From a virus, in the IMG/VR virus record IMGVR_UViG_3300024263_000001, positions 10,353 through 74,352 of that record: a stretch of DNA of 64,000 bases, one strand, 5' to 3'. The position numbers and the translations under genes are program-made. The number at the start of each line of letters is the position of its first letter. The stretch's first letter is position 1. Below the pieces are notes generated by a model. The model did no database searches. It saw only the letters and a program-made list of their open reading frames with translations, and had not been told where the DNA came from. Below, in pieces: positions 37,671 through 64,000 of the stretch.

Positions 37671-37705
37671 ATAAATAAAAATTTAGTTTCCTTGGGAGTA
37701 AGAAA

Positions 37706-38161: not shown

Positions 38162-38190
38162 TTGATTTTTTAGAGGTTTCGTGTTACAAT
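38162..38190 (+). promoter_or_regulatory. Promoter upstream of terL
   Basis: TTGATT-N17-TACAAT with TG extension. Confidence 0.6.
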
Positions 38191-38206
38191 CAAGTGTTAG
38201 GGAATA

Positions 38207-39751: not shown

Positions 39752-39778
39752 TCAGAACATTGGAAAGGAGATTGGGGA

Positions 39779-42822: not shown

Positions 42823-42831
42823 GAAGAAGAT

Positions 42832-43404: not shown

Positions 43405-43424
43405 AGGTAATTAGGAGGATTTGA

Positions 43425-44163: not shown

Positions 44164-44165
44164 AT

Positions 44166-47746: not shown

Positions 47747-48151
47747 ATGGCTAAATGGTGTGATGAAGGCGAAACCTCGGTGGGGGATGTTTACCTAAAA
47801 GCCTCAGCAGGGGTAGCCAAGTGGTTGGGCCTGTTTGAGAATGCAGTCGAACCCGCGGAGGACGCCGTGATGACTGACATAACGGAGCAAGCAGTAGGGC
47901 TTGGTTATGGCAGAATCCAGTTACTCGATGCAGAGTGGACAGAGCAGGCCACGAAGGGCGAATTTAAGAACTTGGAAAAGACCTTTACCGCCAACGGGGG
48001 CGCTTGGGGCGACCAGTATGGTTATTTTATTACAACCGCTGAGACTGGCACGGCTGGGAAGTTGCTCGCCGTGGAACTATTCAGCGATGGCCCTTATGCG
48101 GTCAATGATGGCTGGAGCGTGAAGATAACGCCTACTATCACTGTTGCGTAA
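47747..48151 (+). CDS. Virion structural protein (fibre-base-like)
   Basis: GY.R......W...F.A.GGAWG...GYFI...G.LL pattern recalled from phage structural proteins. Confidence 0.55.
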   Translation: MAKWCDEGETSVGDVYLKASAGVAKWLGLFENAVEPAEDAVMTDITEQAVGLGYGRIQLLDAEWTEQATKGEFKNLEKTFTANGGAWGDQYGYFITTAETGTAGKLLAVELFSDGPYAVNDGWSVKITPTITVA

Positions 48152-48160
48152 TGAGGTGAT

Positions 48161-49563: not shown

Positions 49564-49806
49564 GTGAGAATGGCTGATGTACCAGTTAGAGACTATCATT
49601 TCAGGCCCCGACAAAGACCAGTAAAGAGTCCCAGAACTGGTCGTAGATATAAATGGGAACATAAGGGATCACCATTTGCTATATGTATGGTAGCAGAGGG
49701 GGATTTGCAGTTTATTGAAGCTGTTAAGAAGGGCTGTTGTGGAAGTCGCGGGCGTTACTACAAACGAGCGACACAGGAGGAATACAACGCATGGTTGGGG
49801 AAATGA
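49564..49806 (+). CDS. Small basic hypothetical protein
   Basis: SPRTGRRYKW...KKGCCG. Confidence 0.5.
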   Translation: MRMADVPVRDYHFRPRQRPVKSPRTGRRYKWEHKGSPFAICMVAEGDLQFIEAVKKGCCGSRGRYYKRATQEEYNAWLGK

Positions 49807-50126
49807 ATGTTGAGGATTTTATACCTATTGATGATAGGGTGCTTGTGAGACCACATGAGATTGAGGAAAAGACTGAGAGTGGGGTTTATCTTCCCCCCGC
49901 CGCTCTTGCTGAGAAAAGAGAGATAGTACAGTCGGGCGAGATAGTTGCTATTGGTCCTGGCCGTCTAAACGCGGAGGGGAAGCGTGAAGCTATGATGGAT
50001 TTACGACCTGGGGACACGACGTTTTTCGCTCGCTTCCAGGGTTGGTTATTTGTGGTTGATGATGTAGAATACCGAGTGTTTGGGCAGCACGATCTGTTTG
50101 GTTATAGGAAGAGAGAAGGTGAGTAG
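49803..50126 (+). CDS. groES: Co-chaperonin GroES
   Basis: PIDDRVLVR...EEKTESGVYLP...GEIVAIGPG...GD; start at 49803. Confidence 0.93.
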   Translation: MNVEDFIPIDDRVLVRPHEIEEKTESGVYLPPAALAEKREIVQSGEIVAIGPGRLNAEGKREAMMDLRPGDTTFFARFQGWLFVVDDVEYRVFGQHDLFGYRKREGE

Positions 50127-50586
50127 ATGTGCCCGCTGTGGGACTCCTCTAGGGGTTCGTGTGGGCATTATGGTGGGAGGCGAGTTATTTTGCAATTATG
50201 AGTGTGCCCAAGATTTAGAGGGGGAAAGGGAACGGGCTCCCCTCCCAGTAATGGAGAGGAAAATGAATCCAGATGATCGGTATCCTCGGTGTGTTCAGTG
50301 TGATAAACCTTTAGGAGTTCACGCAGGCATTAAAAGGGAAGGTGTAAGGGTATGTAATCGAGATTGTGAATATCTTTACTTCGGCCCCCCCGATCCTTAT
50401 ACGGAAACAATGATAATGGATTTTAGTTTTCGTACTGCGCTGGAGGATTTGAAGAAACAAAACCCTGAAGTTGATGAGGCGGGTATTTTGGCCTTGTATT
50501 ATCTAGGTTGGGTGAAAGTTCCTAGTCGGGGGGCGGGGGATTACGATATTTACGAGAAAGTGAGAGGATGGTGTGAGGTAGAATAG
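50119..50586 (+). CDS. Protein with two tandem CxxC-PLGV-CNxxC zinc fingers
   Basis: CARCGTPLGVRVGI...CNYEC and CVQCDKPLGVHAGI...CNRDC. Confidence 0.6.
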   Translation: MSRCARCGTPLGVRVGIMVGGELFCNYECAQDLEGERERAPLPVMERKMNPDDRYPRCVQCDKPLGVHAGIKREGVRVCNRDCEYLYFGPPDPYTETMIMDFSFRTALEDLKKQNPEVDEAGILALYYLGWVKVPSRGAGDYDIYEKVRGWCEVE

Positions 50587-50638
50587 AACCTTAAAATTTC
50601 CAGTTTTGTCTTGTAATTGACTAAAACCATGATATAAT
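50587..50638 (+). promoter_or_regulatory. Sigma70-type promoter with AACCTTAAAATT box (copy 5), driving the glycan operon
   Basis: AACCTTAAAATT-N12-TTGTAA-N16-TATAAT. Confidence 0.75.
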
Positions 50639-50644
50639 GAAGGT

Positions 50645-50802
50645 ACTCCCCAGCATTCCTCTAGCGTGGTAGGGACGCCGACCCGTATGGGAGCGTTAGG
50701 GCGATGCTGGCGCGGGGCTGCTGACGAGCAGCCCTGGCTAATCCTCCCCGCCCCCCGCTGATGAGTAGACTGGCGGGTGGCTTGATAATCAATAGGGATT
50801 AT
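50645..50802 (+). ncRNA. GC-rich structured leader or small RNA
   Basis: CCAGCAT/ATGCTGG, GGGCTGCT-GACG-AGCAGCCC and TAATCCT/GGGATTA pairings in a non-coding gap after the promoter. Confidence 0.45.
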
Positions 50803-50834
50803 GTGGAAATCTAAATAAAGGTATCCTTTTCTTT

Positions 50835-51818
50835 ATGGGAACTCGGTTCAGTGTGATTGTGCCCACTACTGGTGGGCGTATGAAAAATTTAGATCTGGTT
50901 CTTTGTTCTCTGGCCAACCAATATTTTCCTAAAGATGATTATGAAATAATTGTGGTAAACGATGGTGGCGAGCCGGAGGTAAAGGATCTGGTTGCCTCCT
51001 ATAAGGGGGAGTTTGGGAAAATTGTTTATATTGTATCTCCCAAATTTGAGTCCATTCCCCTTTCTCAGGTTGCTCCAACAGATGTAGAGGCTACTATAAC
51101 TATTTGGGGGGAAGGGGGAGATCTTATCAAACTTGTTCCCAACGAACAACCCCGCAACAAGGGGGCAAGGCAGGCGGAACATGGTTTTTATATTTTCGCT
51201 GATTCTGATGTGGTTCTTTCTCCTATGACTCTCGCGCTCTATAACCAGGATATTTCTAACAATCCTGATCGGATCATCTTAGGGATTTATCATTGGTTAC
51301 ATCCTATGGAGATAACTAAAAGAGATATAATTGAACGATTTGATGATATAGTCCATCATCGTCTTATGAAGGTTCCTCTCAACCGCCCGCAAACTCATAA
51401 TATTTGCCGTGATATGCGGTTGAAAAATTTTGAAGCAACGACCCCAGATGAGGTTCACCGTGCCCCTAATCACATGAATGATGGTCTTGCTTGTTTTAGT
51501 GGGAATATATGTTGGCCCAAGAATCTGTTTTGGGATATAGGTGGTTATAATCCTTATCTTCATGCAGGAGCCCACGAGGATGGGATGAGTGGGTTGACGG
51601 CTTACTTCGCAGGGTTTGGAATCTCCTACGACAAGCGGATCATTGGTGGGCATATATACCATGACAGAGACATTTCGTATGTTGAATCTTTCAAGTGGGC
51701 CGAGATAGAGATTATAAATGATAAGTTTAAGGATGAACCAGAATTCAAAGGTGTACTTGAGCAGACGGAGGAAGAGAAGAAACAATTAGGCGTGGGGGAT
51801 TGGAAGAAAGAATGGTGA
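50835..51818 (+). CDS. GT2 glycosyltransferase
   Basis: SVIVPT, EIIVVNDG, RNKGA, FADSD, GGY...HED. Confidence 0.9.
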   Translation: MGTRFSVIVPTTGGRMKNLDLVLCSLANQYFPKDDYEIIVVNDGGEPEVKDLVASYKGEFGKIVYIVSPKFESIPLSQVAPTDVEATITIWGEGGDLIKLVPNEQPRNKGARQAEHGFYIFADSDVVLSPMTLALYNQDISNNPDRIILGIYHWLHPMEITKRDIIERFDDIVHHRLMKVPLNRPQTHNICRDMRLKNFEATTPDEVHRAPNHMNDGLACFSGNICWPKNLFWDIGGYNPYLHAGAHEDGMSGLTAYFAGFGISYDKRIIGGHIYHDRDISYVESFKWAEIEIINDKFKDEPEFKGVLEQTEEEKKQLGVGDWKKEW

Positions 51819-52117
51819 TTAAGTTATTCATCATTCTGACTATGGTTGTCACAGGGTATTGTGATGCTACTGGAGCCTCGCCATTTGAGGGAATGACTGC
51901 TTCGGGGGTTTATACAAATAGATTCACAACGGCTTGCCCTCCCGAAATGGAATTTGGTACAGTAATTATAATGGACGGAAAGATATTTATCTGCGAGGAT
52001 AGGGGCGGTGCGATTAAAGGGAATAGGCTTGACATTTGGTTCCCGACTTGTGATGATGCAATTTTGTGGGGGCGACAAGAAAAAGAGGTTTTAATATTGG
52101 GGGCGAGGGGGAAATGA
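51812..52117 (+). CDS. 3D-domain peptidoglycan-related protein
   Basis: Signal-like N-terminus, TASG, FGT, CEDRGGAIKGNRLDIW. Confidence 0.85.
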   Translation: MVIKLFIILTMVVTGYCDATGASPFEGMTASGVYTNRFTTACPPEMEFGTVIIMDGKIFICEDRGGAIKGNRLDIWFPTCDDAILWGRQEKEVLILGARGK

Positions 52118-52253
52118 TAATGATGGAATTTCGGATATGTCCAGATTGTGGTGGGTATGAAATGGTACCAATATCAGAGGAAATTGATTTCTATGGCACT
52201 AGTGATGCCAGTCAACGTCCTTGTGCTTGCAAGCTGAAAGAGGAAGAGGAGGA

Positions 52254-52811
52254 ATGGGTACAATTACCGTTATGGAACCAATCAGAATTAGACCAGACAT
52301 AAAAGGGATTCAATGTGTCCAAGAGGGTGCAATGGAATTGGGGGCATGGTGGGAGGAGCCCAATGTTAATCGCCTTTGGTTTAGAATTCCTTGGGAAGAT
52401 AAAAGTGTTATGGCTACTTCCACTCATCTCCTTATCTTGGAAAACATTCCTGATGAGATAGAAAGTGTGATGAGTGTGGGAGATGGTGGTCTATGGTGCT
52501 GGCTGGTCGCCGCCGCCCATAAAACAGCGATTGATGAGGGTGACATCCCAGAGTATGTAGCAGATACTCGAATTGTGTCCCCCGCTAATAAATTCAGAGA
52601 AAGAGTTAAAAGAGGATTTATTGAAATCCCTGATAGTGATGTAGTTATAGTATCTAATCTTGGAAGTTGGCACTATGGATGGTTCGAGCGCCATGCAAAA
52701 AAGAGAATAATTGTATATTCTCTGGGGAGTTTGATGTTTCTGAAAGCGAGGGGTTATGAAGTGAAGGGATTGGAAACGAAATTTGGACCAGAGTTCGTGG
52801 CTTGGAGGTGA
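52254..52811 (+). CDS. Hypothetical protein
   Basis: GAGGAGG RBS before MGTIT; operonic. Confidence 0.5.
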   Translation: MGTITVMEPIRIRPDIKGIQCVQEGAMELGAWWEEPNVNRLWFRIPWEDKSVMATSTHLLILENIPDEIESVMSVGDGGLWCWLVAAAHKTAIDEGDIPEYVADTRIVSPANKFRERVKRGFIEIPDSDVVIVSNLGSWHYGWFERHAKKRIIVYSLGSLMFLKARGYEVKGLETKFGPEFVAWR

Positions 52812-52817
52812 GGGATA

Positions 52818-53114
52818 ATGAGTAAGATTGAAGAGCTGGAGGAGCAAATAGAAGATTTACAGCGGGCTATAAAAGCGATTACGAAGATGGAGCCTGGTGG
52901 ATTTCCTGGAGATTATGCCGAGGTGCTCAACTTTCATTATAGGGGGCATGTTCAGGTTGGGGAAAGGTTGGTACGCCACGACCAGAAGTTAGATTATATC
53001 TCACAGACGTTGAAAAGATTGGGGCGAGAAGTGAAACAGATACGGTTGGCTATAATGCGGCTTGGGTCCGATGAAGCTATTCATAACCTGATTGGAAGGG
53101 GAAATAATGGGTGA
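52818..53114 (+). CDS. Coiled-coil hypothetical protein
   Basis: GGAGG RBS; heptad pattern. Confidence 0.5.
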   Translation: MSKIEELEEQIEDLQRAIKAITKMEPGGFPGDYAEVLNFHYRGHVQVGERLVRHDQKLDYISQTLKRLGREVKQIRLAIMRLGSDEAIHNLIGRGNNG

Positions 53115-53241
53115 ATATCTGGTTGATAAGGTTGATCTCTCTTGGGTTTGGAAAACTGTTGCAGCAATGGCTATAGTTATGTCATCTACGTTTATGGGTG
53201 GATTTTTACTGGGTTGGTTTCTTTGCGGGCGGTGGGGATGA
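53107..53241 (+). CDS. 44-aa single-TM peptide
   Basis: MGEYLVDKVDLSWVWKTVAAMAIVMSSTFMGGFLLGWFLCGRWG; stop overlaps the next ATG. Confidence 0.45.
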   Translation: MGEYLVDKVDLSWVWKTVAAMAIVMSSTFMGGFLLGWFLCGRWG

Positions 53242-54143
53242 GTAAGGTAGCTGTAGTGACAATGGCAAGAACGGGTTCTACAAGATTACCTAACAAGGTT
53301 ATCTTTGATCTTGGTGGCAAACCAGCGTTTATACAGGCTATCGAGAGAGTCACTAGTGTCGTAAAAGCGGATTATGTGGTTGTGGCTTGCTCGATTTATG
53401 CGCGGGATGATCCGATTGAACTCTTCGCGAAACAGTACGGGATAGATTGTTTTCGTGGCCCAGAGGAGGATACAGGTGGCCGATTGAGGATGTGTGGAGA
53501 ATGGTTAGGTCTAAAAGATGATGATTGGCTTGTAAGCTCTAGTTCTGACCAACCTTTGAGCATAACAAAGTGGTTGCCTTGGGGAATAGAGCAACTTCAA
53601 AAACGTGATTGTGCTTACTTAAGGTTTGTTGCGCCCCCCAATAATACCTTGCCTTGGGCTGTGCACGGAAGTGGCCTTACCTCTTGGCGGCTATCGTGGT
53701 GCAATTATAAAACATTTGGTTCCGAGAAAGGCATACATCATGCAACAACGAGAGCTGCGATGTATGTTGATGATTTTAGGCAATCAGGTGGCAAAGTGCT
53801 TATTGTGAATTGGCCTCCAGGGTATCTCAAACCTTGGCCTTGGGGTCCTTTGTTTCTTGACCATGAAGTACAGGCACTTGTATTAAAAGAGATTTACAGA
53901 CGTCTCTACAAGGGAACGCCGATTGATCCTTTTGATGTATATGAATTATTTAATAATGACCCGCATCTTGCTGAGTTTATTTCTGTTGACGCGCCAGAAA
54001 CTATAAATCCTACACCTACCCCAGTGGGAGATCCCTATCTGAGAAGTGTGAGATTGAATGCAGACTATGTTGAAGTGACTTGGAAAGGAGGGGTTGATGT
54101 AACATCGAAGTACGCAAGAAAAGACTATGCAAAACAAAACTAA
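53238..54143 (+). CDS. SpsF/KdsB-family cytidylyltransferase (CMP-sugar synthetase-like)
   Basis: ARTGSTRLPNKV...GGKP...DD.I...CFRGPEED..R; start at 53238. Confidence 0.85.
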   Translation: MSKVAVVTMARTGSTRLPNKVIFDLGGKPAFIQAIERVTSVVKADYVVVACSIYARDDPIELFAKQYGIDCFRGPEEDTGGRLRMCGEWLGLKDDDWLVSSSSDQPLSITKWLPWGIEQLQKRDCAYLRFVAPPNNTLPWAVHGSGLTSWRLSWCNYKTFGSEKGIHHATTRAAMYVDDFRQSGGKVLIVNWPPGYLKPWPWGPLFLDHEVQALVLKEIYRRLYKGTPIDPFDVYELFNNDPHLAEFISVDAPETINPTPTPVGDPYLRSVRLNADYVEVTWKGGVDVTSKYARKDYAKQN

Positions 54144-54155
54144 TAGGAGGTATGA

Positions 54156-55622
54156 GTGTTAAAACGAATAATTAGTATAATACTGCTAGCAACAGTATTA
54201 CTAGTGGCCTGTGCGCCAGCCGCCCCATCTCCTGAAGTAATCGTGGAGACGGTGATAGAAACCGTGGTGGTTGAAGTAACACCAGTCCCCGTTGACGAGG
54301 GTCCTGAACCTGTAGAACTCCTCTGGTGGACTGAGGACTGTGCCTACGTGCCGTGGGAAGCCTGTGAGGGCTGGAACGATACCTATTGTGGTGATGGCCG
54401 TATAACGGAGTCAGGAGATATAGGCCCAATATATGTCGAGGAATGGCACAAACTCTACCCCGAATACGCTCACGTCAATGTCAAGTGTATTATCGCTGGG
54501 TTCGGGGGTGGGCGCATAGGTACTGAATTGACGGCCATGATACGGGCAGGTGAAGGCCCCAACATCTATATGCTCTACGGGGGAAGGGGTTGGCTTGCCT
54601 ACAAGTTGGGCGTTAACCTTGATCCATACATATCGGACGAGGCCAAGGCTGATTACCTCAACTACGAACAGTGGTTCGATGAGGACGGTACAGTTGTTAT
54701 GCTTCCTAGTTCGGGTGTCATCGAGTATCCCGTAGCTAATAAGCAACTCATCGAACGTGCCTGTGCCCAAGAGGGATTTGATTGTGAGATCCCTGAGCGT
54801 TGGAGCATCATGTCCTATGATGACTACCTGGAAATCGCAGAGGCTATCAAGGCTCTCGATGACGGCTCCTACATGGGGATACTCTTCGGTATGCACGCAT
54901 CAGGCCAGACTTGGAACATGCTTTACTTCACCCAGGCAGGTCTCTCCCCGACCGAGGGTGGTAAGTTTACTGGATTCGCAGGTGGCGAAGATGTTCTAAC
55001 TGAACTCCTCCGCCTATACGATGAAGGTTACTTCTATCCTGATATAGCAGGCGCTTCTGATGACGATGCCATCAGGCTCTTCGCCCCTGGCAAGATTGGC
55101 ATCTTCATGGCTCGTCTATCAATTGGTCCTTCGTACATCGGCCCTGCTGTAGAAGCTGGGGAGTGTGAACCTTGGGATTTAATCCCGCTTCTGGGTATTC
55201 AGTTCAGAGAAGGCGTTACTCCTCTCATTGCAGGAAGCCAGTATGGTCGGGTCGGCTTCATGTCCGAGAACACGCCCGAAGAACATCGGGAAGCCGCCAT
55301 GAGCTTCCTGTCTTACGTTCTTTCTGCCCCCTGGATGGGAGAGTCACCAGGCGTAAATGCTATGAGTGGTGGGGACATGTTTATCCCTCTCCATTCAATG
55401 GTGGAACGCGGGATAGCAGCACCTGGTCGGGATGAAGCTTACGCCCATATTCAGGAATATGGCCTCGCCGACTATGGTTTGCAAATACCGTTCTACAACG
55501 ACGTTCGTGCAGCGTTCGGCGATATGCTCTCTGCTGTCGCTTTACATGAACTAACACCTGAAGAAGCTCTAGCACAATTCCAGGCCAAGATCGTAGAACT
55601 GGAAGAGGAGTGGAACAGGTAG
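54156..55622 (+). CDS. Carbohydrate ABC transporter substrate-binding lipoprotein
   Basis: Lipobox LLVAC, VETV.ETVVVEVT linker, AGEGPNI, NK.LIE, FAPGKIGI, TPEEAL. Confidence 0.9.
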   Translation: MLKRIISIILLATVLLVACAPAAPSPEVIVETVIETVVVEVTPVPVDEGPEPVELLWWTEDCAYVPWEACEGWNDTYCGDGRITESGDIGPIYVEEWHKLYPEYAHVNVKCIIAGFGGGRIGTELTAMIRAGEGPNIYMLYGGRGWLAYKLGVNLDPYISDEAKADYLNYEQWFDEDGTVVMLPSSGVIEYPVANKQLIERACAQEGFDCEIPERWSIMSYDDYLEIAEAIKALDDGSYMGILFGMHASGQTWNMLYFTQAGLSPTEGGKFTGFAGGEDVLTELLRLYDEGYFYPDIAGASDDDAIRLFAPGKIGIFMARLSIGPSYIGPAVEAGECEPWDLIPLLGIQFREGVTPLIAGSQYGRVGFMSENTPEEHREAAMSFLSYVLSAPWMGESPGVNAMSGGDMFIPLHSMVERGIAAPGRDEAYAHIQEYGLADYGLQIPFYNDVRAAFGDMLSAVALHELTPEEALAQFQAKIVELEEEWNR

Positions 55623-55625
55623 CAA

Positions 55626-56486
55626 GTGAAGAAGCACAATTGGTGGGGGCCGGTTCTGCTGGCCCCTGCCTTGCTCTTACTAATGTTCATGTATATTCTG
55701 CCAACTCTCTATGCCGCCCGCCTGAGTTTCTACGATGTGGGCTTTGCGAAAGATACTTGGTTGGGACTGGAGAACTTTCGCCGTCTCCTGTCTAAGGGGG
55801 GATGGGTGACAAGCATGCAAGTATCAGGAAAATTCCTAGTTCTGGTCTTGTTTGTAAGTTTAATAATTGCATATATTTTGGCATTAGCTCTCAGAAAGTT
55901 TAGTGAGCGGTTCTGTAGGATGATTTTGACCTTATATTATATCCCAACTATTTTTGCGGGGGTAGTAACAGTAGCGGTCTGGAGATGGTTTTATAGATAC
56001 CCGAACGGTGGGCTAAACAATATTTTAGACTCTCTTCATTTGCCTACTATCTCGTGGCTGGGAACTCCAATAACTGCACCTTGGGCTCTTGGATTTTTAA
56101 TGATGGGAACCATGTTTGGGTTCTCCACCTTGTTGTATGTGGCTGCTATTGGTCAGATAGATTTAGAACTCTTGGGGGCTGCTAAGATAGATGGTGCCAA
56201 TGAGTTCCAATTGATATGGTATATCATCACACCTCTGACCCATCGAGTGAGACTCTATATAACCTTGATCAGCACTGTCGGTGCTTTAAGTATTTGGGAA
56301 CATCCATTCTTCTATACGGGTGGAGGCCCCATAGGAAGTACCACAACAGTGCTCCTAAAAGTCTATCAGGAGGCTTTCGCCAGGGACAATATTGGATTAG
56401 GAAGTGCCATGACTACAGTAACAACATCTATCATTTTAATTTTTGCAATCTTCGGAGTAAGATATTTTAGGGAATTTTTGGGATGA
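55626..56486 (+). CDS. Carbohydrate ABC permease (MalF/UgpA-like)
   Basis: GLENF, GGLN..L....ISWLG, EAA-loop variant GAAKIDGAN, TGGGP..STT. Confidence 0.93.
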   Translation: MKKHNWWGPVLLAPALLLLMFMYILPTLYAARLSFYDVGFAKDTWLGLENFRRLLSKGGWVTSMQVSGKFLVLVLFVSLIIAYILALALRKFSERFCRMILTLYYIPTIFAGVVTVAVWRWFYRYPNGGLNNILDSLHLPTISWLGTPITAPWALGFLMMGTMFGFSTLLYVAAIGQIDLELLGAAKIDGANEFQLIWYIITPLTHRVRLYITLISTVGALSIWEHPFFYTGGGPIGSTTTVLLKVYQEAFARDNIGLGSAMTTVTTSIILIFAIFGVRYFREFLG

Positions 56487-57328
56487 GGGGATTCACGAGA
56501 ACACAAAAACTATTAGCAATCTTACTGATCTTGTTTGGGGTGATTTGGCTTTTCCCAGCCTATTTCACTATACAAACCTCGTTTCTTAGCAAATTCACCA
56601 GCCCTACGAATTTATGGGGTCACGTACATCTCGAAAATTGGAAGGCGCTTCCTTGGCGTAAGTTGGGTAGCTGGGCATTTAATACTGTTATTGTCTGTGG
56701 GATAGCAGTTATTCTTTCCCCTATAGTTTGTATAAGTGCGGGTTATGCTTTTGTTAGATATAACTTTTGGGGAAAAGAAGCAATATTTTATTTATTTTTA
56801 CTGGCGATAACGGTGCCTGGTGTTGCTTTGTTTTTACCTAGATACTTGCTAATTGTCCGCTCTGGTCTAAGGGGCACTCATCTTGGTCTAGCCCTTCCTG
56901 GGATTATGGCCCCCGCCGCGGTTTTTCTTGCAAGGCAATATCTCTCGCAAATGGATATATCTATTGTTGAAGCTGCTAGACTGGACGGAGCATCAGAGAT
57001 AAGGATTCTCCGTAGTATTGTTTTTCCACTTTCAGTGCCTTTAATAGTATTGAATTTAATTGGAGGATTTACGGCGGTCTATGGGGATTTTTTCTGGCAG
57101 TTTTTAGTTGGCGGAGGTATTCAGACCTTGGCAGTAGGCATCGGCCTGTTTATACTTTCTACGGATTCCGGTGGTGCATTGGGAGGGTCAGTTAGCTCGG
57201 CTTTGGGGGGGACCACTCCCATTACAGTGGAATCCCTTAGGGCAGCGGTCTCGGTTTTGCAATCTCTGCCATTATTGATCTTATTCATCGTTGGGCAAAA
57301 ATATTTTGTGAAGGGTATTAAAATATGA
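56483..57328 (+). CDS. Carbohydrate ABC permease (MalG/UgpE-like)
   Basis: AGYAF..YNF.GK, EAARLDGAS, IVFPLS.P, QKYFVKG. Confidence 0.93.
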   Translation: MRGFTRTQKLLAILLILFGVIWLFPAYFTIQTSFLSKFTSPTNLWGHVHLENWKALPWRKLGSWAFNTVIVCGIAVILSPIVCISAGYAFVRYNFWGKEAIFYLFLLAITVPGVALFLPRYLLIVRSGLRGTHLGLALPGIMAPAAVFLARQYLSQMDISIVEAARLDGASEIRILRSIVFPLSVPLIVLNLIGGFTAVYGDFFWQFLVGGGIQTLAVGIGLFILSTDSGGALGGSVSSALGGTTPITVESLRAAVSVLQSLPLLILFIVGQKYFVKGIKI

Positions 57329-58395
57329 AACTAGCAATTGTCGGCTGGCGTCCTTGGTCGGTTGTGCGGAGGTATAAGAGCTTAATTGTTAATGCTAAAA
57401 AGTTGGGCCACCAGGTTGTTGGCATTGCTCTTGAGCATTATGGTGATCGTCCAAAGACAGCATCTCTATTTCGGGATTTGGGGGTGCCAGTAGGTTCGTT
57501 GAATCAATTCCGCCCCGATGCTGTCTTTGGGGAATGTTTCTGGAACGCAGAAGAAAATGCTGCCCGTGTGTGGGCGCGGGGAGCACGCAAGAAGTATTTT
57601 GTGTTGGACCATGGTAAATGGAATGCGCCTGTTGATCTTTATAATCATGGTAATATGAAACCACCAAATGTAATGTTAACAGTAAATGAAAAGAATGCTG
57701 ATTATCTATGTAAGGAATTTAGAATTCAGGCGATTCCTGTGGGTGTTCCTAATTTTGATGTGGAATATGAGGTTGATATAGATAAAGTTAGAATAGATTT
57801 GGGAGTTACGAACCAACCAATGGTCGCTCTCTTCTTGGAAGTGGTTTATCAGGGAATCCGCTTAGAATATGAACGGGAAAGGTTATTTTCTTTTCTCGCT
57901 CTAGCCCAGAGGAAGAATTGGAAAGTTTTCATGCACATTGATCCCGATGAACAAGGAAGAAAAACCAGGTTCCTAGATCGGGGACATCCCCGCCGTGCTT
58001 TTCTCAGGGAACTCCAGGGTAGGGGAGGTATCTTTGTTTCATGTTTTCCTGGGGATTATAATGATGTTATATTCAAACCCTGCGGACCTATGGCTTTGAT
58101 GCGTTCTGCTGATCTTGTGTGTGGTACTTATCATAAGATGTTTGAGGCTTATGTTGCCACCAAGAAATATTTTTGGATGAGAGAAGGAGAAGAAGGTGAA
58201 GGACATATATCTCTGAATAGACATCCCAATCTTGTTAAGGTTGACCCAGATTATGGAAATATCGTAAAAGCGATTGAAGAGAATACGGCATCTTTTGAGC
58301 AACATCCAGCTTATGTGAAACGGTGGTTCTATAAATTGGACGGAAAGTGCTGGATGCGGATATTGGCTGTTGCAGAAGCATCGAGGAGAAGATAA
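57325..58395 (+). CDS. GT-B-like polysaccharide biosynthesis protein (TagB/capsule-type)
   Basis: DHG, VGVPNFD, ADLV, DGKC..RI pattern. Confidence 0.55.
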   Translation: MKLAIVGWRPWSVVRRYKSLIVNAKKLGHQVVGIALEHYGDRPKTASLFRDLGVPVGSLNQFRPDAVFGECFWNAEENAARVWARGARKKYFVLDHGKWNAPVDLYNHGNMKPPNVMLTVNEKNADYLCKEFRIQAIPVGVPNFDVEYEVDIDKVRIDLGVTNQPMVALFLEVVYQGIRLEYERERLFSFLALAQRKNWKVFMHIDPDEQGRKTRFLDRGHPRRAFLRELQGRGGIFVSCFPGDYNDVIFKPCGPMALMRSADLVCGTYHKMFEAYVATKKYFWMREGEEGEGHISLNRHPNLVKVDPDYGNIVKAIEENTASFEQHPAYVKRWFYKLDGKCWMRILAVAEASRRR

Positions 58396-59141
58396 TGGAA
58401 TTCGTACATGAAGCATTGAGAAACAAACACAAAGACCAGCCAGTTTGGGTTGTAGGTGCTGATCCCACAATAGTAAAGTTTCCCAAGGATTTCCTGAAGG
58501 ATAAATTATCTATAGTTGTAGGAAGTGCTTATGTTGCTTTTCCGAATGGAACTTATAATTACAATAACGAATATAGAACCGTTGAGGAATTTTGGCCAGG
58601 GAGGTTTCCTGATTATTTGACCAAATCACACATTTGGGCTTTCCCGTTTTATGGTATGGGTGAGGGAGGATCCAGAAAGTTTATTGAAGAACATAAACCC
58701 CCGAAACTTTGGTCTTTACATTATAGACCTTACCCACCAAAGGGTCGTCGCCCCGATATACTTACGGATGTGGGATACAATGCTATGGTTGGGTTAGTTC
58801 ATAAGGCAAATGAGGGACACCCAGGCCCCTACGGTGGGTTTGGCACGAGTCTCCATTGCGCGCTCTATTCTGCTATTATTATGGGTTGTAACCCGATTAA
58901 CATAATTGCTTGTAGCCATCGGATAATAGGTGGATATTATCATGCCCCAGAACTGGGTGGGGTTCCCGCCACTCCTCAGCAGATTGTCGCTGCCACCAAA
59001 AGCATGCGCAGTTTTAACGAACGGGGAACGCAGGCGATCATGGAAGGATGCCGAAAGGAGGGTATAACAGTTCTTAGGTTTATTGGTTATGAGGGGGTTC
59101 AAGCAGCCATTAAAATTGCAGAAGCAATGGGGAGGAAATGA
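58395..59141 (+). CDS. Maf/DUF115-like (sialyltransferase-fold) protein
   Basis: LRNKHKDQPVWVVGADPT, TSLH.A...A..MGCNPINIIAC. Confidence 0.7.
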   Translation: MEFVHEALRNKHKDQPVWVVGADPTIVKFPKDFLKDKLSIVVGSAYVAFPNGTYNYNNEYRTVEEFWPGRFPDYLTKSHIWAFPFYGMGEGGSRKFIEEHKPPKLWSLHYRPYPPKGRRPDILTDVGYNAMVGLVHKANEGHPGPYGGFGTSLHCALYSAIIMGCNPINIIACSHRIIGGYYHAPELGGVPATPQQIVAATKSMRSFNERGTQAIMEGCRKEGITVLRFIGYEGVQAAIKIAEAMGRK

Positions 59142-59836
59142 CAACAATTGCGGCGATTCTTTTACATTATTGGAAACAAAGAACGGGTAATGTCGAGAGG
59201 GTGATTGAAGATTTAAAACGAGGCACTCGCCCCCCCGATAAGATTATTGTCTTTAATAATAACAAGGACGTGGTATTCCCTTCCCTCCCCGAAGTGATTG
59301 TAATAAACTCCAATCATAATTATCATTGCCTGATGAGACATGCTATGGGGCTGATGGCGGGGACCGACCTTTGCTTATTTGTGGACGATGATATAACGTT
59401 GCAGGTGAACGGTTTGGCGTATCTGCTTCAACAGCACAACTCTCATCCTAAAGCAATTATAGGATTTGAAGGGAGAATACTAGGGAGAGATAAAAAGAAC
59501 CCTTACACCTCTGGTTCCAGAGTTCATCATGTATCTAGGCCCACACCAGTAGATATAGTTTTGGGAAGAGTTCATCTTTGTCATGTTAACAAACTTCTGA
59601 ATTCCTTTGTGATGAGAGCCAAGATAGGCAATTTCTCCGATGATAGTGTGGGGTCTTATTCAACGGATGATATTCTCTTGTCCCTCTCAAACAGGATTTT
59701 GAATAGAGCCCAGAATTATGTGGTTCCTTCCAAAGCAATAGAACTTTCAGAGAGAGGGGTTGGTTATCATGGTACAGATAAGCAACACTACCCCAGGAGG
59801 AATGCCGCTTGTAGGAAGTTATTAGGTTATGGCTGA
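59138..59836 (+). CDS. GT-A glycosyltransferase (GT2/GT64-like)
   Basis: IIVFNN, FVDDD, TDDILL. Confidence 0.75.
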   Translation: MTTIAAILLHYWKQRTGNVERVIEDLKRGTRPPDKIIVFNNNKDVVFPSLPEVIVINSNHNYHCLMRHAMGLMAGTDLCLFVDDDITLQVNGLAYLLQQHNSHPKAIIGFEGRILGRDKKNPYTSGSRVHHVSRPTPVDIVLGRVHLCHVNKLLNSFVMRAKIGNFSDDSVGSYSTDDILLSLSNRILNRAQNYVVPSKAIELSERGVGYHGTDKQHYPRRNAACRKLLGYG

Positions 59837-60368
59837 ATTTTTGACTTTTGTGACACGAACATGCAAGCGCCCTCACATGTTGTTGAAAAATATGGAATCT
59901 GTTCGCACACAAACGGATGATGATTGGAAACAGATTATTTTAGTGGATGATAAGAAGAGGGGGAAGTTTTATGCTAACAAGATGCTCGCTGCTCACAAAG
60001 GAAGAATTAAGGGACAGTATGTTTATATTTTAGATGATGATCATCGGTTGATTATTCCTGACTTTGTGACAGGGATTCGGAACATTGTTAAAAAGAAGAA
60101 TCCAGATATCATTATGGTGAAGTGTAAAATTCGTTATCATGGAATTTTGCCCCGCCGATGGAGACAGAAACCAAAAAGTGCCTATATAGATACAGGATGT
60201 TTTGTGGTTAGGGGAACATTGTGGAGGAAGCATATTGGAACATTTGGTGTGCCTGTGTGCGGGGATTATCATTTTATTACTAGGGTTTGGAAACAGAAAG
60301 GAGTAAGGATAGAATGGTGGGATAAGGTTGTCGCCGAGGATTTGAGGGAAACAATGCAATGGGGATGA
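59829..60368 (+). CDS. GT2-like glycosyltransferase
   Basis: RP..L...ESV..QT, ILDDD, GDYHFI. Confidence 0.8.
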   Translation: MAEFLTFVTRTCKRPHMLLKNMESVRTQTDDDWKQIILVDDKKRGKFYANKMLAAHKGRIKGQYVYILDDDHRLIIPDFVTGIRNIVKKKNPDIIMVKCKIRYHGILPRRWRQKPKSAYIDTGCFVVRGTLWRKHIGTFGVPVCGDYHFITRVWKQKGVRIEWWDKVVAEDLRETMQWG

Positions 60369-60754
60369 AAATCTGGGTCATTCGTGGTGGCGAGATAATA
60401 GATTATGAGCGTGTTGGTAAATGCTTGGGCTGTGGAGAGTGCTGTGGGCGATTTGCCTATCATTGTCAGATGGCCGAGTCCCCCAAAGAGGCCAAAAACG
60501 GAAAGTACGCAGATCTAACAAAGCGCGAGGGTTGGGCTGTAGAAGATTGGGATGATGAGAACGAGTGGCGATGGTGGGGACCGTTCGATATTACCGAGCG
60601 GAAGAAACCGTGTCAATCGTTCAATTCCAAAACCAGGCGATGCAAGGTATTTGGGGAGAAGAAATGGCCAGAAGTTTGCCGTAAGTTCCCTTTGAGGTCA
60701 GAGGACTTAGAAGGATTATCTAACTGTGGTTTTTCCTTTAGGGAGACACAGTGA
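60365..60754 (+). CDS. YkgJ/CxxCxxCC (FliB-like) Fe-S/Zn-binding protein
   Basis: CLGCGECC...C......CKVF...PEVCRKFP. Confidence 0.8.
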   Translation: MKIWVIRGGEIIDYERVGKCLGCGECCGRFAYHCQMAESPKEAKNGKYADLTKREGWAVEDWDDENEWRWWGPFDITERKKPCQSFNSKTRRCKVFGEKKWPEVCRKFPLRSEDLEGLSNCGFSFRETQ

Positions 60755-61245
60755 AATATAAAACGATACTGGCTGATCCTCCTTGGAAGTATGGCAAGGG
60801 TTGGGGGTGGGGGGCGGGCGAGTATTATCCGCTGATGACCGTTGAAGAAATATGTGCGCTCTCTATTCCCTCCGAGGACAACGCCCATCTATATTTGTGG
60901 TCGCCCAATGGGATGTTACCCGATGCTTTACGAGTGATGAAGGCCTGGGGGTTTACCTACAAGACTTGTATCACTTGGGTAAAGCATAGATCTATCTTTG
61001 GTTATTATTTTAAAGGGCAAACGGAGCAACTGCTTTTTGGTGTGAAAGGACGATTGCCCCCTGCCGATAGACGGCAAGTTACAGTTCTGTTTGCCGATAT
61101 TAGAAAGCACAGCCAAAAACCTAATGAGATTTATGAAGTAATAGAGAAGGTTTCTCCCCCACCATATTTGGAATTGTTTGCCCGCCAAAGGCATAATGGC
61201 TGGGATGTATGGGGCAATGAAGTAAGGAGCGATATAGAGATATGA
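60751..61245 (+). CDS. MT-A70-family adenine methyltransferase
   Basis: ILADPPW, LYLW, AWGF.YKT..TWVK, HSQKP, ELFAR, WGNE. Confidence 0.92.
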   Translation: MKYKTILADPPWKYGKGWGWGAGEYYPLMTVEEICALSIPSEDNAHLYLWSPNGMLPDALRVMKAWGFTYKTCITWVKHRSIFGYYFKGQTEQLLFGVKGRLPPADRRQVTVLFADIRKHSQKPNEIYEVIEKVSPPPYLELFARQRHNGWDVWGNEVRSDIEI

Positions 61246-62033
61246 AATTCGTTTCTCTATGTATTCTCAGTTACAAAAGATTGGCTTTTCTGAAAAGTAC
61301 GATCAATTCTATCAAGGAAACCACAAAATTTTCTTATGAGTTGCTAGTACATGATGATGGCTCGGATGAGAATTGGTTCTATATCCAAGACTTAATGTGG
61401 GCTAGGGAAATCAGCACCGCTATATACAACACAGGAAGTAATATGGGAGTGGGCGAAGCCATCCATCGGCTCTTTTCTTGTGCGAAGGGGGAATATCTGG
61501 TCAAGTTGGATGCGGACCTTCAATTCCGATCCAATTGGTTGACTTTAGGCGTGGCTCTACTAGATAAATACCCTGATATTGGAGCCCTTGGGTGGTTCGC
61601 CTACCCCGCTCCCAGCGAACATAAAATCACCCGCAATCGTGAGGATCCCAGCAAGGATAATACTCTCATTGAAATAAGAGAGGATTGTGAAATCGTTCAT
61701 GATTTCGTTTCCTCAGCAATGATTATCCGAAGAGAACATTGGGAGAAATATGGGATTGAACGGGGCTCAGAAGCATTTGCTGAGGATATTGGGCTCAAGG
61801 AGAAAATGAAAGCCGACGGCCTGCTGATGGCTATTACCAAAAAGGATTACATTGAGAATGTTGGATTTGGTCTTGAAAAAAGTGTAGTTGTAACTCCTGA
61901 TGAAGCAGGCCAACCCCAAGTGGCGAAGATTTGTAAATACCCTTTGCTTTTTAAGGACGGTAAAGCAATACCTATGATTGATATAAAGGAGGAGGAGAGG
62001 GATGAAATTAAGGAAAGCCTTGGACAAGATTAA
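61242..62033 (+). CDS. GT2 glycosyltransferase
   Basis: VHDDGS, N.GVG, KLDAD, AED. Confidence 0.88.
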   Translation: MKFVSLCILSYKRLAFLKSTINSIKETTKFSYELLVHDDGSDENWFYIQDLMWAREISTAIYNTGSNMGVGEAIHRLFSCAKGEYLVKLDADLQFRSNWLTLGVALLDKYPDIGALGWFAYPAPSEHKITRNREDPSKDNTLIEIREDCEIVHDFVSSAMIIRREHWEKYGIERGSEAFAEDIGLKEKMKADGLLMAITKKDYIENVGFGLEKSVVVTPDEAGQPQVAKICKYPLLFKDGKAIPMIDIKEEERDEIKESLGQD

Positions 62034-62304
62034 AAGGAAAGCATCAGGTTATATATTAGCTTATGACCCCCGTGGGAAGACTGAATATGCGTGTAGAGCG
62101 TGGTTTGCCGAACATGGACCTTGGTTCCATGGTTATGGGACTAGTGAGGAGGAGGCCGCCGAGGATTGCTTAATGAAATTGAAAGCATGGTGGGATGTGA
62201 GAGATAAAGTTAACGTGGGGGACGGACTTTCTCGGCGTCGGGAGAAGGATGGGAAAGAAACGGAAGAAAAAACGGATACCGAAGAGGAAACGAGAATCAC
62301 CTAA
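62002..62304 (+). CDS. HicB-like small protein
   Basis: GYGTSEEEAAED...W resembles the HicB G.T.EEA motif. Confidence 0.4.
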   Translation: MKLRKALDKIKRKASGYILAYDPRGKTEYACRAWFAEHGPWFHGYGTSEEEAAEDCLMKLKAWWDVRDKVNVGDGLSRRREKDGKETEEKTDTEEETRIT

Positions 62305-63133
62305 AGATTTGGTTGCATCACCAAGACCATTGGTGGATATTGTAATTCCCGTCTATGGGCATCCAAATATGTTGCGGGGCACAATTGCTTCTCTCAGGTT
62401 ACATCCCAGTTCAATCTCGTGGAGATGTTTCGTTGTAGATGATGCCAGCCCCGAAGAGAATGAAACAGAATTAAACACCATCTATCGGAGTTTGAAGAAG
62501 GATCGCCGTTTCCGTGTGATAAAATCTAAAAAGAATCTTGGTTATGCGGGAGCCAATAATAAAGGGGCCGCTTCTGGTAGTTCTCAATTTATTCTTTTGT
62601 TGAATAGTGATACGAGAACAACTGGGGATTGGCTCGCCCTCCTGGTGAAAGAGATGCATGATTCAAAAGTGGGAGTGGTTGGGTGTAAATTATTATTTTT
62701 TCCTGAGAGATTCAATGACCCCAAACGCCCCGCTGGTAGGATTCAACATGCGGGGGTGGTTTTTAATGTAACACGGGCTCCCTATCACAGGATGATTGGC
62801 TGGCCCTCAGATGATATACGTGTTAATCGAAGAGAGGAAATGCAATCTGTTACTGGTGCTTGTTTTCTTACAAGACGAAATCTCTGGAGTAAGATTCGGG
62901 GTCTAAACGAGATTTACACAAAGGGCAACTTTGAAGACGTGGAATATTGTGTTCACCTGGAGCATTTGGGTTATAAAGTGATTTATACTCCAGAACCTCT
63001 TATTTATCACTTTGGTGGGGGATCTGAGAATTATCAAACTGCTCAGAGGAATCTCCAGATATTTTTGATGCGGTGCGGACAGGCGGTCCGATTTGATGAT
63101 TACTGCTTCGCTCGGAAGGATGAGGCCCAATGA
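62249..63133 (+). CDS. GT2 glycosyltransferase (WbbL/rhamnosyltransferase-like)
   Basis: DIVIPVY, VVDDAS, NLGYAGANNKGA, LLNSD, IQHAG, VTGAC, FEDVEYC. Confidence 0.92.
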   Translation: MGKKRKKKRIPKRKRESPKDLVASPRPLVDIVIPVYGHPNMLRGTIASLRLHPSSISWRCFVVDDASPEENETELNTIYRSLKKDRRFRVIKSKKNLGYAGANNKGAASGSSQFILLLNSDTRTTGDWLALLVKEMHDSKVGVVGCKLLFFPERFNDPKRPAGRIQHAGVVFNVTRAPYHRMIGWPSDDIRVNRREEMQSVTGACFLTRRNLWSKIRGLNEIYTKGNFEDVEYCVHLEHLGYKVIYTPEPLIYHFGGGSENYQTAQRNLQIFLMRCGQAVRFDDYCFARKDEAQ

Positions 63134-64000
63134 GATGGCTATATTGTATATTTCAGAATTTGTGGCAAGAGGTAGTGGTTATTTTAGGATCGCGGAGGGA
63201 CTTGCTCCCCGCTTAGATGAAAGGGAGCCTTTATATTTCTTGGGTCTAAATTATCGGGGCGCGTACCATCCCTATAACTTTACAGTTGTTCCTACTAGGG
63301 CAGATTGGATTCCCGCCCAGATGGAAGAGATGCTGGGGGATAAATCTTTAGACATTAACAAAGTTGTTGTTGCTTTGGATCTTCCAGTTCAGACTCAAAG
63401 AGTTCTTGCCTTTTTCCCCCCACAGAAACGAGAGGGATGGAGATACATAGGAATTTTCCCTCTTGATGGTGGTCCCCTTTCCCGCAGGTTTGCCCTCCCC
63501 ATTCGATTTATGAACATTAGTTTCGCTATTAGTAAATTTGCCCATCATTGCTGTCTTGATTTGGATTTGGATGTTCATTATTTGCCCATTGGAATAGAGG
63601 AAAAATCTTGGCGGCCCATCGAAAAGGAACATAAAGAAAAAGTTAGAAAAGAATTTAATGTTGCCGACAAATTTGTTGTTCTTTTTGTGGGTGACAACCA
63701 CGAACGAAAATATGCTGTAGGGGCAATGGAAATTTTTGCTGAATTCTCTAAGGATAAGGATGATACAGAGTTGTGGATGGTAACTCGTCTCGGTAGTGCC
63801 TATGGTTTTGATTTGGAATATTATGCCCAGATGTGGGGAATAGAGGACAGAGTGAAATTCTGGGAGCGCACTCTTTCCCCCAAATCTCTTTGGCTTATGT
63901 ATGCTGCATCTGATGTTTTGCTTAACACCTCTAAGGCTGAAGGTCTGGGCCTCCCGCTACTAGAAGCAATGTCAGTTGGGGGAGCGATCCCTGTAGGTAC
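63130..64000 (+). CDS. GT4 glycosyltransferase, runs off the window (absent from the ORF track)
   Basis: MRWLYCISEF...VGDNHERK...YAASDV.LNTSKAEGLGLPLLEAMSVG. Confidence 0.9.

Follow-up and report, generated by a model that had tools for sequence, protein, structure and literature searches.

The last ~13.5 kb of a 64,000-nucleotide (nt) stretch of viral DNA (hereafter the window; bases 10353-74352 of the 74,352-nt IMG/VR record IMGVR_UViG_3300024263_000001) hold a block of genes in which an ATP-binding cassette (ABC) importer is combined with a cytidylyltransferase and a series of glycosyltransferases (GTs). With a probability of about 0.55, this block is a genuine internal phage cassette through which a building block taken up from outside enters glycosylation in the cytoplasm. 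The block reaches the last base of the record and lies within one phage genome, with head genes on one side and neck and tail genes on the other; its 18 genes, located at 50835-64000, are all on one strand and mostly overlap. That importer, activating enzyme and transferases function together is best supported by the apparent movement of the set, as a unit, into the head modules of different phages.

An initial annotation, made from the sequence alone, had listed glycosyltransferases, a cytidylyltransferase, a sugar importer and a CxxCxxCC protein, had likened two proteins without a family to GT-B enzymes and to Maf/DUF115 proteins, and had proposed that an external sugar is imported, activated and built into a glycan on the virion or on the host surface. 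Searches with Pfam, PHROGs and NCBIfam bore out this gene content, and the predicted structures of both proteins without a family agree with what had been guessed. As for the proposal, the phage origin of the block and the functional coupling of its parts are well supported, whereas the nature of the sugar and the choice between virion and host-surface acceptor did not gain support. Genes absent from the initial list are those of a 3D-domain protein (51800) and an MT-A70 methylase (60751), together with three small open reading frames (ORFs) without known function. The core of the block is formed by the following genes (lengths in amino acids, aa; pLDDT, predicted local distance difference test):

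53142-54143, + strand: KdsB-like cytidylyltransferase (CTP_transf_3, Pfam 39.9 bits, above cut-off)
54156-55622, + strand: solute-binding lipoprotein of a CUT1-type ABC importer, 488 aa (Pfam SBP_bac_1/SBP_bac_8, 45.9 and 36.6 bits)
55626-56486, + strand: ABC importer permease 1 (BPD_transp_1; NCBIfam GlcT 76 bits, UgpA 65 bits; five hydrophobic segments)
56483-57328, + strand: ABC importer permease 2 (BPD_transp_1; NCBIfam GlcU, UgpE and MalG; six hydrophobic segments)
57325-58395, + strand: soluble protein of predicted GT-B fold (model pLDDT 88; no Pfam match by sequence)
58395-59141, + strand: soluble protein of predicted Maf/DUF115 (MptE-like), sialyltransferase-like fold, 248 aa (model pLDDT 71)

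Conservation of the set in other loci

Relatives of the set were found in two other viral records (G001 and G002) and on further contigs (L003 and L006). The binding-protein family is small, with 9 homologues among 5.8 billion proteins, and profile scans led to six loci. When IMG/VR was scanned with profiles of the binding protein, of one of the two proteins without a family and of the cytidylyltransferase, only the same two viral records, G001 and G002, were returned; when IMG/VR was searched with one protein at a time, neither the binding protein nor the portal gave a hit. No match to the binding protein was obtained by tblastn against 50,697 GenBank phages, and a pattern scan of 185,579 species genomes, a method limited by its pattern, gave no relative.

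Co-occurrence was compared at the four loci with enough flanking sequence, namely the window, G002, G001 and L006. In four out of four, the cytidylyltransferase gene directly adjoins those of the transporter, with the gene order shuffled and identities of 31-63%, and in each of them homologues of the Maf-like protein, of the GT-B protein or of both accompany the transporter together with glycosyltransferase homologues. The core sets of G001 and G002 are 35-63% identical to that of the window phage, again in shuffled order. The linkage of transporter and glycosyltransferase genes in homologous phages, on which the initial proposal depended, is therefore conserved in other viral records, and it includes the cytidylyltransferase.

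G002, 45.1 kb long and bounded by 32-nt terminal repeats, differs from the window phage in its major head protein (phrog_212, E 1.9e-54) and in its terminase, and shares with it two further genes and no more. Its cassette begins directly 3' of the capsid gene, the order being capsid, GT2, GT2, GT, cytidylyltransferase, binding protein, two permeases, Maf-like protein and GT64-like protein. In G001, a 23-kb fragment, the set is found behind a portal-like gene, among glycosyltransferases, an endonuclease and sugar O-methyltransferase-like genes. Since the linkage persists despite the low identity, the shuffled order and the different capsid and terminase, the sequences indicate that the set has moved as a unit between unrelated phages, each time to the head module.

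Two methyltransferase-type genes flank the cassette of G001. One encodes a class I S-adenosylmethionine (SAM) methyltransferase (L014:9466-10119) and the other a Methyltransf_24/CmcI-type protein resembling rhamnosyl O-methyltransferases (L014:16233-16847), which PHROGs labels as a DNA methyltransferase; their sequences suggest a methylated glycan in G001. G002 carries a single 3,244-aa ORF (record 34661-44395) and a radical-SAM protein (record 25446-26309).

Predicted functions of the encoded proteins

The cytidylyltransferase likely starts at M33 (position 53238), which would give a protein of 301 aa. Three homologues keep the motifs ARxxSxRLPxK and DxP, both aligned to the KdsB structure 3jtj, and in the PDB the profile of the family matched 3jtj (E 5.9e-12) over ~105-130 N-terminal residues, the nucleotide-binding half. 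KdsB-type equivalog models of NCBIfam scored 16-38 bits, their cut-offs being 155-281. The C-terminal half is conserved within the family and resembles no known one. KdsB and NeuA bind their sugar through the C-terminal half; hence, the substrate cannot be read from this enzyme.

The importer is, by its sequence, assigned to the CUT1 family. Its binding protein begins with a signal peptide and the lipobox LVAC, followed by a Pro/Glu-rich tether, and such a lipoprotein signal would point to a host without an outer membrane. No ABC_tran ATPase was found in this record, G001 or G002, the sole hit being a 12.9-bit P-loop match elsewhere. Since the genome lacks an ABC ATPase, the phage importer would depend on an ATPase of MsmX/MalK type provided by the host. 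Shared ATPases (MsmX, MsiK, MsmK) drive ATPase-less CUT1 systems in monoderm bacteria. On the 3.9-kb contig L003, where the binding protein is 48% identical, a MalK-type ATPase (78-1196; ABC_tran, OB_MalK and TOBE_2) is located directly upstream, which suggests that the phage version lost, or never took, its motor.

The proteins encoded at 57325 and 58395 had no PDB match by sequence. Their homologues were collected and aligned, their structures were predicted, and the models were compared with solved structures by VIA-align. The GT-B model matched best the uridine diphosphate (UDP)-N-acetylglucosamine (GlcNAc) 2-epimerases, with Z 21.4 for 1v4v and 20.9 for NeuC; capsule polymerases, TagF and TarL gave Z 19.2-17.9, and one of these capsule polymerases was solved with cytidine monophosphate (CMP). 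In the Atlas, a Glyphos_transf cluster was matched with a template-modelling (TM) score of 0.75 and an Epimerase_2 cluster with one of 0.66, and by sequence neither PF04464 nor PF02350 matched at E up to 10. Only 49 related proteins were retrieved when 1.84 billion representatives were searched with a profile; among distant relatives the domains were Epimerase_2 (10 of 16), Glyphos_transf (7 of 16), Capsule_synth (3) and polysialyltransferase (2). Two conserved residues, His96 and His204, are compatible with either Glyphos_transf or Epimerase_2. The HP motif of CMP-sugar GT-B enzymes was also considered for this protein and dropped, its His being conserved and its Pro not. The model places the protein as a small new family in the superfamily of Epimerase_2, TagF, KpsC and polysialyltransferases, where it could act as a transferase of a cytidine-linked group or as a nucleotide-sugar epimerase. 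The TagF, TarL, capsule polymerase, KpsC-type and polysialyltransferase families are all known to use cytidine-linked donors.

The model of the second protein, compared with 48,161 chains by VIA-align independently of Foldseek, was closest to Magnetospirillum Maf (5mu5; Z 11.7, root mean square deviation 3.5, 179 residues aligned), unrelated rows falling below Z 5. The next matches were the pyrophosphokinase MptE (8sd5, Z 10.6) and SteA (Z 9.4), and the mammalian and Campylobacter sialyltransferases of families GT29 and GT42 followed with Z 8.4-6.7; Foldseek gave Cst-I and Cst-II with probabilities of 0.98-0.99. The protein aligns solely to residues 261-510 of the 632-residue chain 5mu5_A, and the outer domains of the ~600-aa Maf architecture are absent, so that the model describes a bare Maf/DUF115 core. 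By sequence, MptE-like (PF01973) had no match in this record, G001 or G002 at E up to 1, and the 29% identical homologue of L006 reached 23.4 bits, under the cut-off of 34.6. The Atlas lead was likewise MptE-like, a family carried by only 10-17% of the neighbour members. To our knowledge, the characterised glycosyltransferases of the Maf/sialyltransferase fold all use CMP-nonulosonates.

Six glycosyltransferases of GT2/GT4 type are encoded in the block, four of them clear (50835, 61242, 62249 and 63093) and two marginal (59138 and 59829), and every GT2 match of the genome falls within it. A crude scan located hydrophobic segments only in the binding protein, the permeases and the 3D-domain protein, and all transferases of the block are predicted to be soluble. 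The genes outside the core are:

50835-51818, + strand: GT2 glycosyltransferase, 327 aa (Glycos_transf_2 43.4 bits, N-terminal part only; NCBIfam EpsD-like N-terminus; no hydrophobic segment)
51800-52117, + strand: 3D-domain protein, 105 aa, putatively of cell-wall-binding or lytic type (Pfam 3D 38.2 bits; phrog_6631 and peptidase-type PHROGs; hydrophobic segment at residues 5-24)
52221-52811, + strand: ORF without family, 196 aa (no Pfam or PHROG match)
52818-53114, + strand: ORF without family, coiled-coil-like, 98 aa (XhlA sub-threshold, 19.8 bits with a cut-off of 34.7)
59138-59836, + strand: GT-A-type glycosyltransferase, GT64/GT2-like, 232 aa (Glyco_transf_64 20.4 bits, cut-off 21.3; the G002 homologue, 57% identical, clears it at 25.7 bits)
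59829-60368, + strand: short GT2-like protein, 179 aa (Glycos_transf_2 25.2 bits, cut-off 23.3; kept in G002 with 55% identity)
60359-60754, + strand: CxxCxxCC (PF03692) metal-binding protein, 131 aa (Pfam 34.5 bits)
60751-61245, + strand: MT-A70 methyltransferase, 164 aa (Pfam 77.6 bits, whole profile)
61242-62033, + strand: GT2 glycosyltransferase, 263 aa (Pfam 75.5 bits)
62002-62304, + strand: ORF without family, 100 aa (no family match)
62249-63133, + strand: GT2 glycosyltransferase, 294 aa (Pfam 75.6 bits)
63093-64000 and on into record start 138-432, + strand: GT4 (GT-B) glycosyltransferase, 400 aa in total (Glycos_transf_1 46 bits)

Absent families were searched for in two closed genomes (this record and G002) and in the G001 fragment. 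As positive controls, CTP_transf_3 and GT2 were found in all three records, and control genomes gave matches for the searched families, with the exception of Tet_JBP, found in one control only and below cut-off. None of the three viral records contains NeuB, a KdsA-type synthase, a short-chain dehydrogenase/reductase (SDR) epimerase or dehydratase, NTP_transferase or DegT; none contains a Bac_transf priming phosphoglycosyl transferase or a Wzx-type flippase; and none contains PF12851 (TET/JBP), PF00303 (thymidylate-synthase-like hydroxymethylase) or PF00145 (C5-methylase). No kinase family was recognised in the block. The statement of the initial annotation that sugar-nucleotide synthesis enzymes are missing holds for the searched families in this record, but it is insecure, the best structural matches of the GT-B protein being UDP-GlcNAc 2-epimerases.

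Proposed pathway, acceptor and alternatives

The proposed pathway would start with expression, from a phage promoter, of the lipid-anchored binding protein and the two permeases, and the CUT1-type importer would borrow a MalK/MsmX-type ATPase from the host. The imported compound would then be charged directly with cytidine triphosphate (CTP), no kinase being involved, and the KdsB-like enzyme would yield a donor linked to CMP or to cytidine diphosphate (CDP). Transfer of the activated compound would be carried out by the Maf/sialyltransferase-fold protein, by the TagF/epimerase-like GT-B protein, or by both, and the remaining glycan would be built by the GT2, GT64-like and GT4 enzymes from nucleotide sugars of the host (UDP-sugars). 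The target would be a virion protein, either the capsid, a decoration protein or a head fibre. Scavenging rather than synthesis is suggested by the lack of NeuB, KdsA, SDR epimerase, NTP_transferase and DegT.

Because no kinase is recognisable and the sole activating enzyme is of the CTP-dependent KdsB type, the compound should be directly activatable with CTP. The presence of a Maf/sialyltransferase-fold protein favours an ulosonic acid (3-deoxy-D-manno-octulosonic acid, Kdo, or a nonulosonic acid) converted to a CMP-sugar, which we consider somewhat more probable than all other compounds taken together. A minority option is a head group or phosphorylated polyol, for instance glycerol 3-phosphate, which would give a CDP-linked donor; it is kept alive by the kinship of the GT-B protein with TagF and by the scores of the permeases against Ugp systems. 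The chance that the compound is something else is slightly smaller still. As for the acceptor, the soluble enzymes, the lack of lipid-carrier, export and lysogeny genes and the recurrent position in the head module make a virion protein the likeliest one, at odds that are even or a little better. The Ser/Tyr-rich repeat fibre encoded at 48161-49558 is, as a speculation, a candidate. A more specific version of the pathway, in which a mobile cassette with an importer running on the host ATPase takes an environmental ulosonic acid (sialic-acid-, pseudaminic- or Kdo-like), activates it to the CMP-sugar and uses it to cap a glycan of the capsid or the head fibres, is tentative and has well under an even chance. 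If it is true, the surface chemistry of the virion would depend on supply from its surroundings.

Several points weigh against the scavenging pathway. No substrate could be assigned, and the half of the cytidylyltransferase that could have indicated one has no match. The nearest solved relatives of the binding protein bind neutral sugars or oligosaccharides, at E 1e-6 or weaker in the PDB, and the best NCBIfam scores of the permeases are for glucose and glycerol-3-phosphate systems, with maltose systems also among the best. The GT-B protein, whose best structural matches are epimerases, may make a nucleotide sugar instead of transferring one. The Maf-like protein has only 248 aa, neither the flanking Maf domains nor a Pfam sequence match, and a fold that is common to the pyrophosphokinase MptE (Z 10.6) and SteA (Z 9.4). 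On the acceptor side, no gene of this phage could be identified as that of its capsid, and no acceptor motif is known. Moreover, glycosyltransferases using UDP-sugars of the host need no importer, so that the importer may serve one step only or a separate purpose, and a phage without export machinery could still use that of its host.

By analogy, the cassette would work as a bacterial scavenging-sialylation system joined to a Maf-type protein glycosylation island, located where mycobacteriophages keep their virion glycosyltransferases. It would belong to none of these systems, as its importer is without an ATPase, the NCBIfam equivalog cut-offs were failed, and the Maf architecture and the synthesis genes are absent. 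The block resembles the flagellin glycosylation islands of Campylobacter, Aeromonas and Magnetospirillum, in which Maf occurs with CMP-nonulosonate synthetases of PseF/LegF type. In both, an enzyme of the KdsB/NeuA/PseF superfamily stands beside a Maf-fold protein, soluble enzymes act in the cytoplasm, and what is presumably modified is a structural protein whose assembly follows outside the cell. The CxxCxxCC protein of the block is a further likeness, as its family includes the flagellin methylase FliB. The block differs from these islands in the reduction of its Maf-like protein to a 248-aa core, in the replacement of the nonulosonic acid synthesis genes by an importer and in its location in a phage head module.

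In Haemophilus influenzae (SiaPQM, SiaB, Lic3A), scavenged sialic acid is imported, activated with CTP and transferred to the surface without de novo synthesis, and Streptococcus pneumoniae SatABC is an ATPase-less CUT1 sialic-acid importer driven by MsmK. The phage block shares with them the succession of import, CTP activation and transfer, and its importer likewise consists of a CUT1 binding protein and two permeases without an ATPase. It differs in that no sequence kinship of its binding protein to a sialic-acid binder was found, in being phage-borne and in the many more glycosyltransferases linked to it. Virion O-glycosylation by phage glycosyltransferases encoded in the structural operon is described for mycobacteriophages (Freeman et al. 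2023, as cited in papers such as PMC11256854). Like those phages, the window phage is a tailed phage whose head-gene region includes soluble GT2/GT4 genes, with a virion protein as the presumed acceptor; unlike it, those phages have one to few glycosyltransferases working on host nucleotide sugars, and they are not known to have an importer, a cytidylyltransferase or a Maf-like protein.

Full-text literature searches found virion glycosylation, auxiliary transporters of phages and phage DNA glycosylation, and no importer coupled to a glycosylation cassette. Glycosyltransferase clusters of phages and bacterial pathways that scavenge, activate and transfer a sugar are each known separately; a virus with its own importer feeding a glycosylation pathway is new in the searched literature. 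If the scavenging pathway exists, some environmental phages would use scavenged compounds to build part of their virion or cell-surface glycans, a phage would be exploiting the shared-ATPase design of CUT1 importers, and the set would pass as one unit between phages that are not related. Moreover, biochemistry would find tractable targets in three small unstudied families, namely those of the binding protein, of the minimal Maf-like core and of the cytidylyltransferase, whose C-terminal half is new.

The cassette might instead remodel the host surface (a teichoic-acid-like polymer, a capsule or an S-layer glycan), blocking superinfection or masking receptors, with the TagF-like GT-B protein adding the imported compound. 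Such a function is unlikely, although it accounts for several features. The GT-B protein is structurally near TagF, TarL and the capsule polymerases, a secreted or anchored 3D-domain wall-binding protein is encoded within the block, the first GT2 is weakly like EpsD and GtrB, and the permeases match the glycerol-3-phosphate permeases UgpA/UgpE almost as well as those for glucose. The polymerases that use CDP-glycerol or CDP-ribitol (TagF 3l7i, TarL 8va1, Cps/Bcs 8qoy and 8a0c) share the GT-B fold over the whole protein (Z 17.9-19.2), distant sequence relatives of the phage protein carry Glyphos_transf, and a cytidylyltransferase is the neighbour. However, the phage protein has no Glyphos_transf sequence match and no membrane-association region, epimerases score slightly higher (Z 21.4), and the phage cytidylyltransferase is of KdsB and not of TagD/TarI type. 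Furthermore, all transferases are predicted to be soluble, and a priming transferase, a flippase and an integrase are absent from the two closed genomes. Surface-conversion genes are typically moron-like and near lysogeny genes; this cassette belongs to the head module in each of three different phages, and in one of them it comes immediately after the capsid gene.

The importer could also be a free-standing auxiliary metabolic set for the uptake of carbon or phosphorus, unlinked to the cytidylyltransferase and only adjoining an ordinary glycosyltransferase cluster. Binding proteins and transporters carried by phages are known as auxiliary genes, such as pstS of cyanophages. Complete ABC systems occur as auxiliary genes in huge phages (bioRxiv 10.64898/2026.10.24.761521). 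The weak PDB matches of the binding protein are ordinary sugar binders, and L003 resembles a plain operon of ATPase, binding protein and permease. A free-standing importer is nonetheless quite improbable, because the adjacency of the cytidylyltransferase to the transporter is conserved in all four flanked loci, despite shuffling and at 31-50% identity. In addition, the whole set has moved between phages that otherwise share almost nothing, and the tiny binding-protein family (the 9 in 5.8 billion given above) was met neither in the species genomes nor in the GenBank phages scanned.

We know of no described DNA-modification cluster that includes an importer with an exported binding protein. This bears on the possibility that the enzymes put glycans on the phage DNA, as in the hypermodification clusters acting on 5-hydroxymethylcytosine (5hmC), with MT-A70 as part of the block. 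A preprint reports phage clusters in which heptose is attached to 5hmC by a cytidylyltransferase together with a GT-B enzyme, as well as clusters that attach a sugar acid resembling Kdo (bioRxiv 10.1101/2023.12.21.572611). The block resembles these clusters in its phage cytidylyltransferase with GT-B and GT-A enzymes, and the MT-A70 gene lies inside it. It differs from them in having no 5mYOX, ThyS-like or C5-methylase partner, in the presence of the importer and in its head-module location. Without a hydroxymethylase, a TET/JBP dioxygenase or a C5-methylase in the three records, nothing would make the acceptor base. T4 beta-glucosyltransferase is absent from the 50 structures that match the GT-B model best, and G002 retains the core set without a BLAST-detectable homologue of MT-A70. 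DNA glycosylation is therefore very improbable.

Genome context and expression signals

The record closes on itself. Its start (the first 10.4 kb) was read in addition to the window, and its two ends overlap:

63863-64000, unstranded: overlap of the two record ends (the final 138 nt are identical to the first 137 nt except for one base in a T run)

The GT4 gene that begins at 63093 carries on in frame across the joint and is open to its stop codon; its two halves hit consecutive segments of the Pfam profile Glycos_transf_1 (positions 3-118 for the half in the window, 81-143 for the half at the start of the record). The record therefore forms a closed unit of ~74.2 kb, circularly permuted or terminally redundant. 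IMG/VR lists it as linear and 57% complete; one indel near the first base plausibly accounts for the first label, and the completeness estimate is probably wrong. Beyond the GT4 gene come weak matches to a head-tail adaptor (E 4.6e-4) and to a Neck1/tail-completion protein (E 2.3e-5), and further on an 856-aa protein and an HNH/NUMOD3 endonuclease. A NeuB-type synthase, which the initial annotation had advised looking for past the window, is not there; neck and tail genes are found instead.

Upstream of the block are the large terminase (phrog_38, E 2.6e-68), the portal, two HNH genes, a ChaB-domain protein, a 431-aa protein of capsid size and a small protein with a weak fibre match. The terminase is only ~23% identical to those of Streptomyces phages, and therefore the host cannot be inferred from it. 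The presumed capsid gene (45963-47258, 431 aa) had no match in sequence searches of PHROGs, Pfam or PDB, nor did its protein by tblastn against the 50,697 GenBank phages. Of the earlier description of the block as directly following the capsid genes, the position behind terminase and portal stands, but for the capsid gene itself the claim is positional only. Neither this record nor G001 or G002 contains a tyrosine integrase, a search for tRNAs found none, and Rfam detected no riboswitch or other RNA family at 50000-64000.

Exact Logan contigs were found in two runs from two studies (seawater and subsurface metagenomes), one of which may be the source sample, with an even depth of 10-16x over the fibre gene and the block; an exact contig of 722 nt spans the upstream junction (50493-51214). 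An identical binding protein is present on a separately recorded 75,247-nt contig. In a third study, both the capsid-side genes and the block, transporter genes included, are represented by 85-95% variants. GC content and GC skew are unchanged across 50.6 kb. The block is headed by a promoter-like site and a leader:

50587-50638, + strand: promoter-like site with the box AACCTTAAAATT (50587-50598), a -35 element TTGTAA (50611), a 16-nt spacer and an extended -10 element TGATATAAT (50630-50638)
50639-50834, + strand: GC-rich untranslated leader of ~195 nt, preceding the first glycosyltransferase gene (no Rfam match)

The box AACCTTAAA(A/G)TT has five exact copies in the window, at 6066, 25234 (minus strand), 33607, 33863 and 50587, a recurrence which argues that the block uses the phage's own promoter type. 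When one mismatch is allowed, 6 matches are found where chance would give 1.46; among 100 shuffles, 2 attain that count of 6. Promoter-like sites as such are not in excess in the region (33, compared with 30.5 in shuffles). The claim that a single promoter drives the block stands as far as a promoter-like site and a phage box are indeed found at its head; that this one promoter drives the whole block is only plausible.

An origin of the block from host chromosome or foreign DNA, joined by misassembly or at a prophage boundary, as the listing as linear and incomplete, the typically cellular nature of ABC importers and the extension of the block to the window end might suggest, is excluded for practical purposes, because the record closes on itself through its 137/138-nt overlap with an intact gene across the joint and neck and tail genes next to it, the phage box heads the block, exact contigs of even depth from two studies include one that bridges the junction, GC content and skew are continuous, no integrase is present, and two other viral records hold the set among hallmark genes. 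The initial annotation had itself named such a junction or chimera as the outcome that would undo its proposal.

The translational coupling attributed to the genes is backed by their spacing from 54156 onward (+12 to -56 nt, mostly overlaps of 1 to 10 nt), except that gaps of 103 nt at 52117 and 123 nt at 53114 occur further upstream. A GC-rich hairpin of 13 pairs (55642-55670) is located 20 nt past the stop codon of the binding protein, within the annotated start of permease 1, whose true start may be further downstream. Like hairpins in cellular ABC operons, it could determine how much binding protein is made relative to permease.

The fibre-like protein encoded at 48161-49558 has 465 aa and consists of ~ten repeats of PSYLSxLExxYxG type, each of ~23 residues, with 11% Ser and 8% Tyr and a Cys/His motif at the end. 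Its gene seems hypervariable, since the populations of the third study cover its neighbours and leave 48003-49336 uncovered. Between this gene and that of a Cys-rich 168-aa protein, just before the block, a GroES homologue is encoded (49737-50126; phrog_3188, E 4.3e-15). Three HNH/homing endonuclease genes are scattered among the terminase, portal and tail genes, two in the window (39779-40450 and 42832-43404) and one in the record start (7722-8390).

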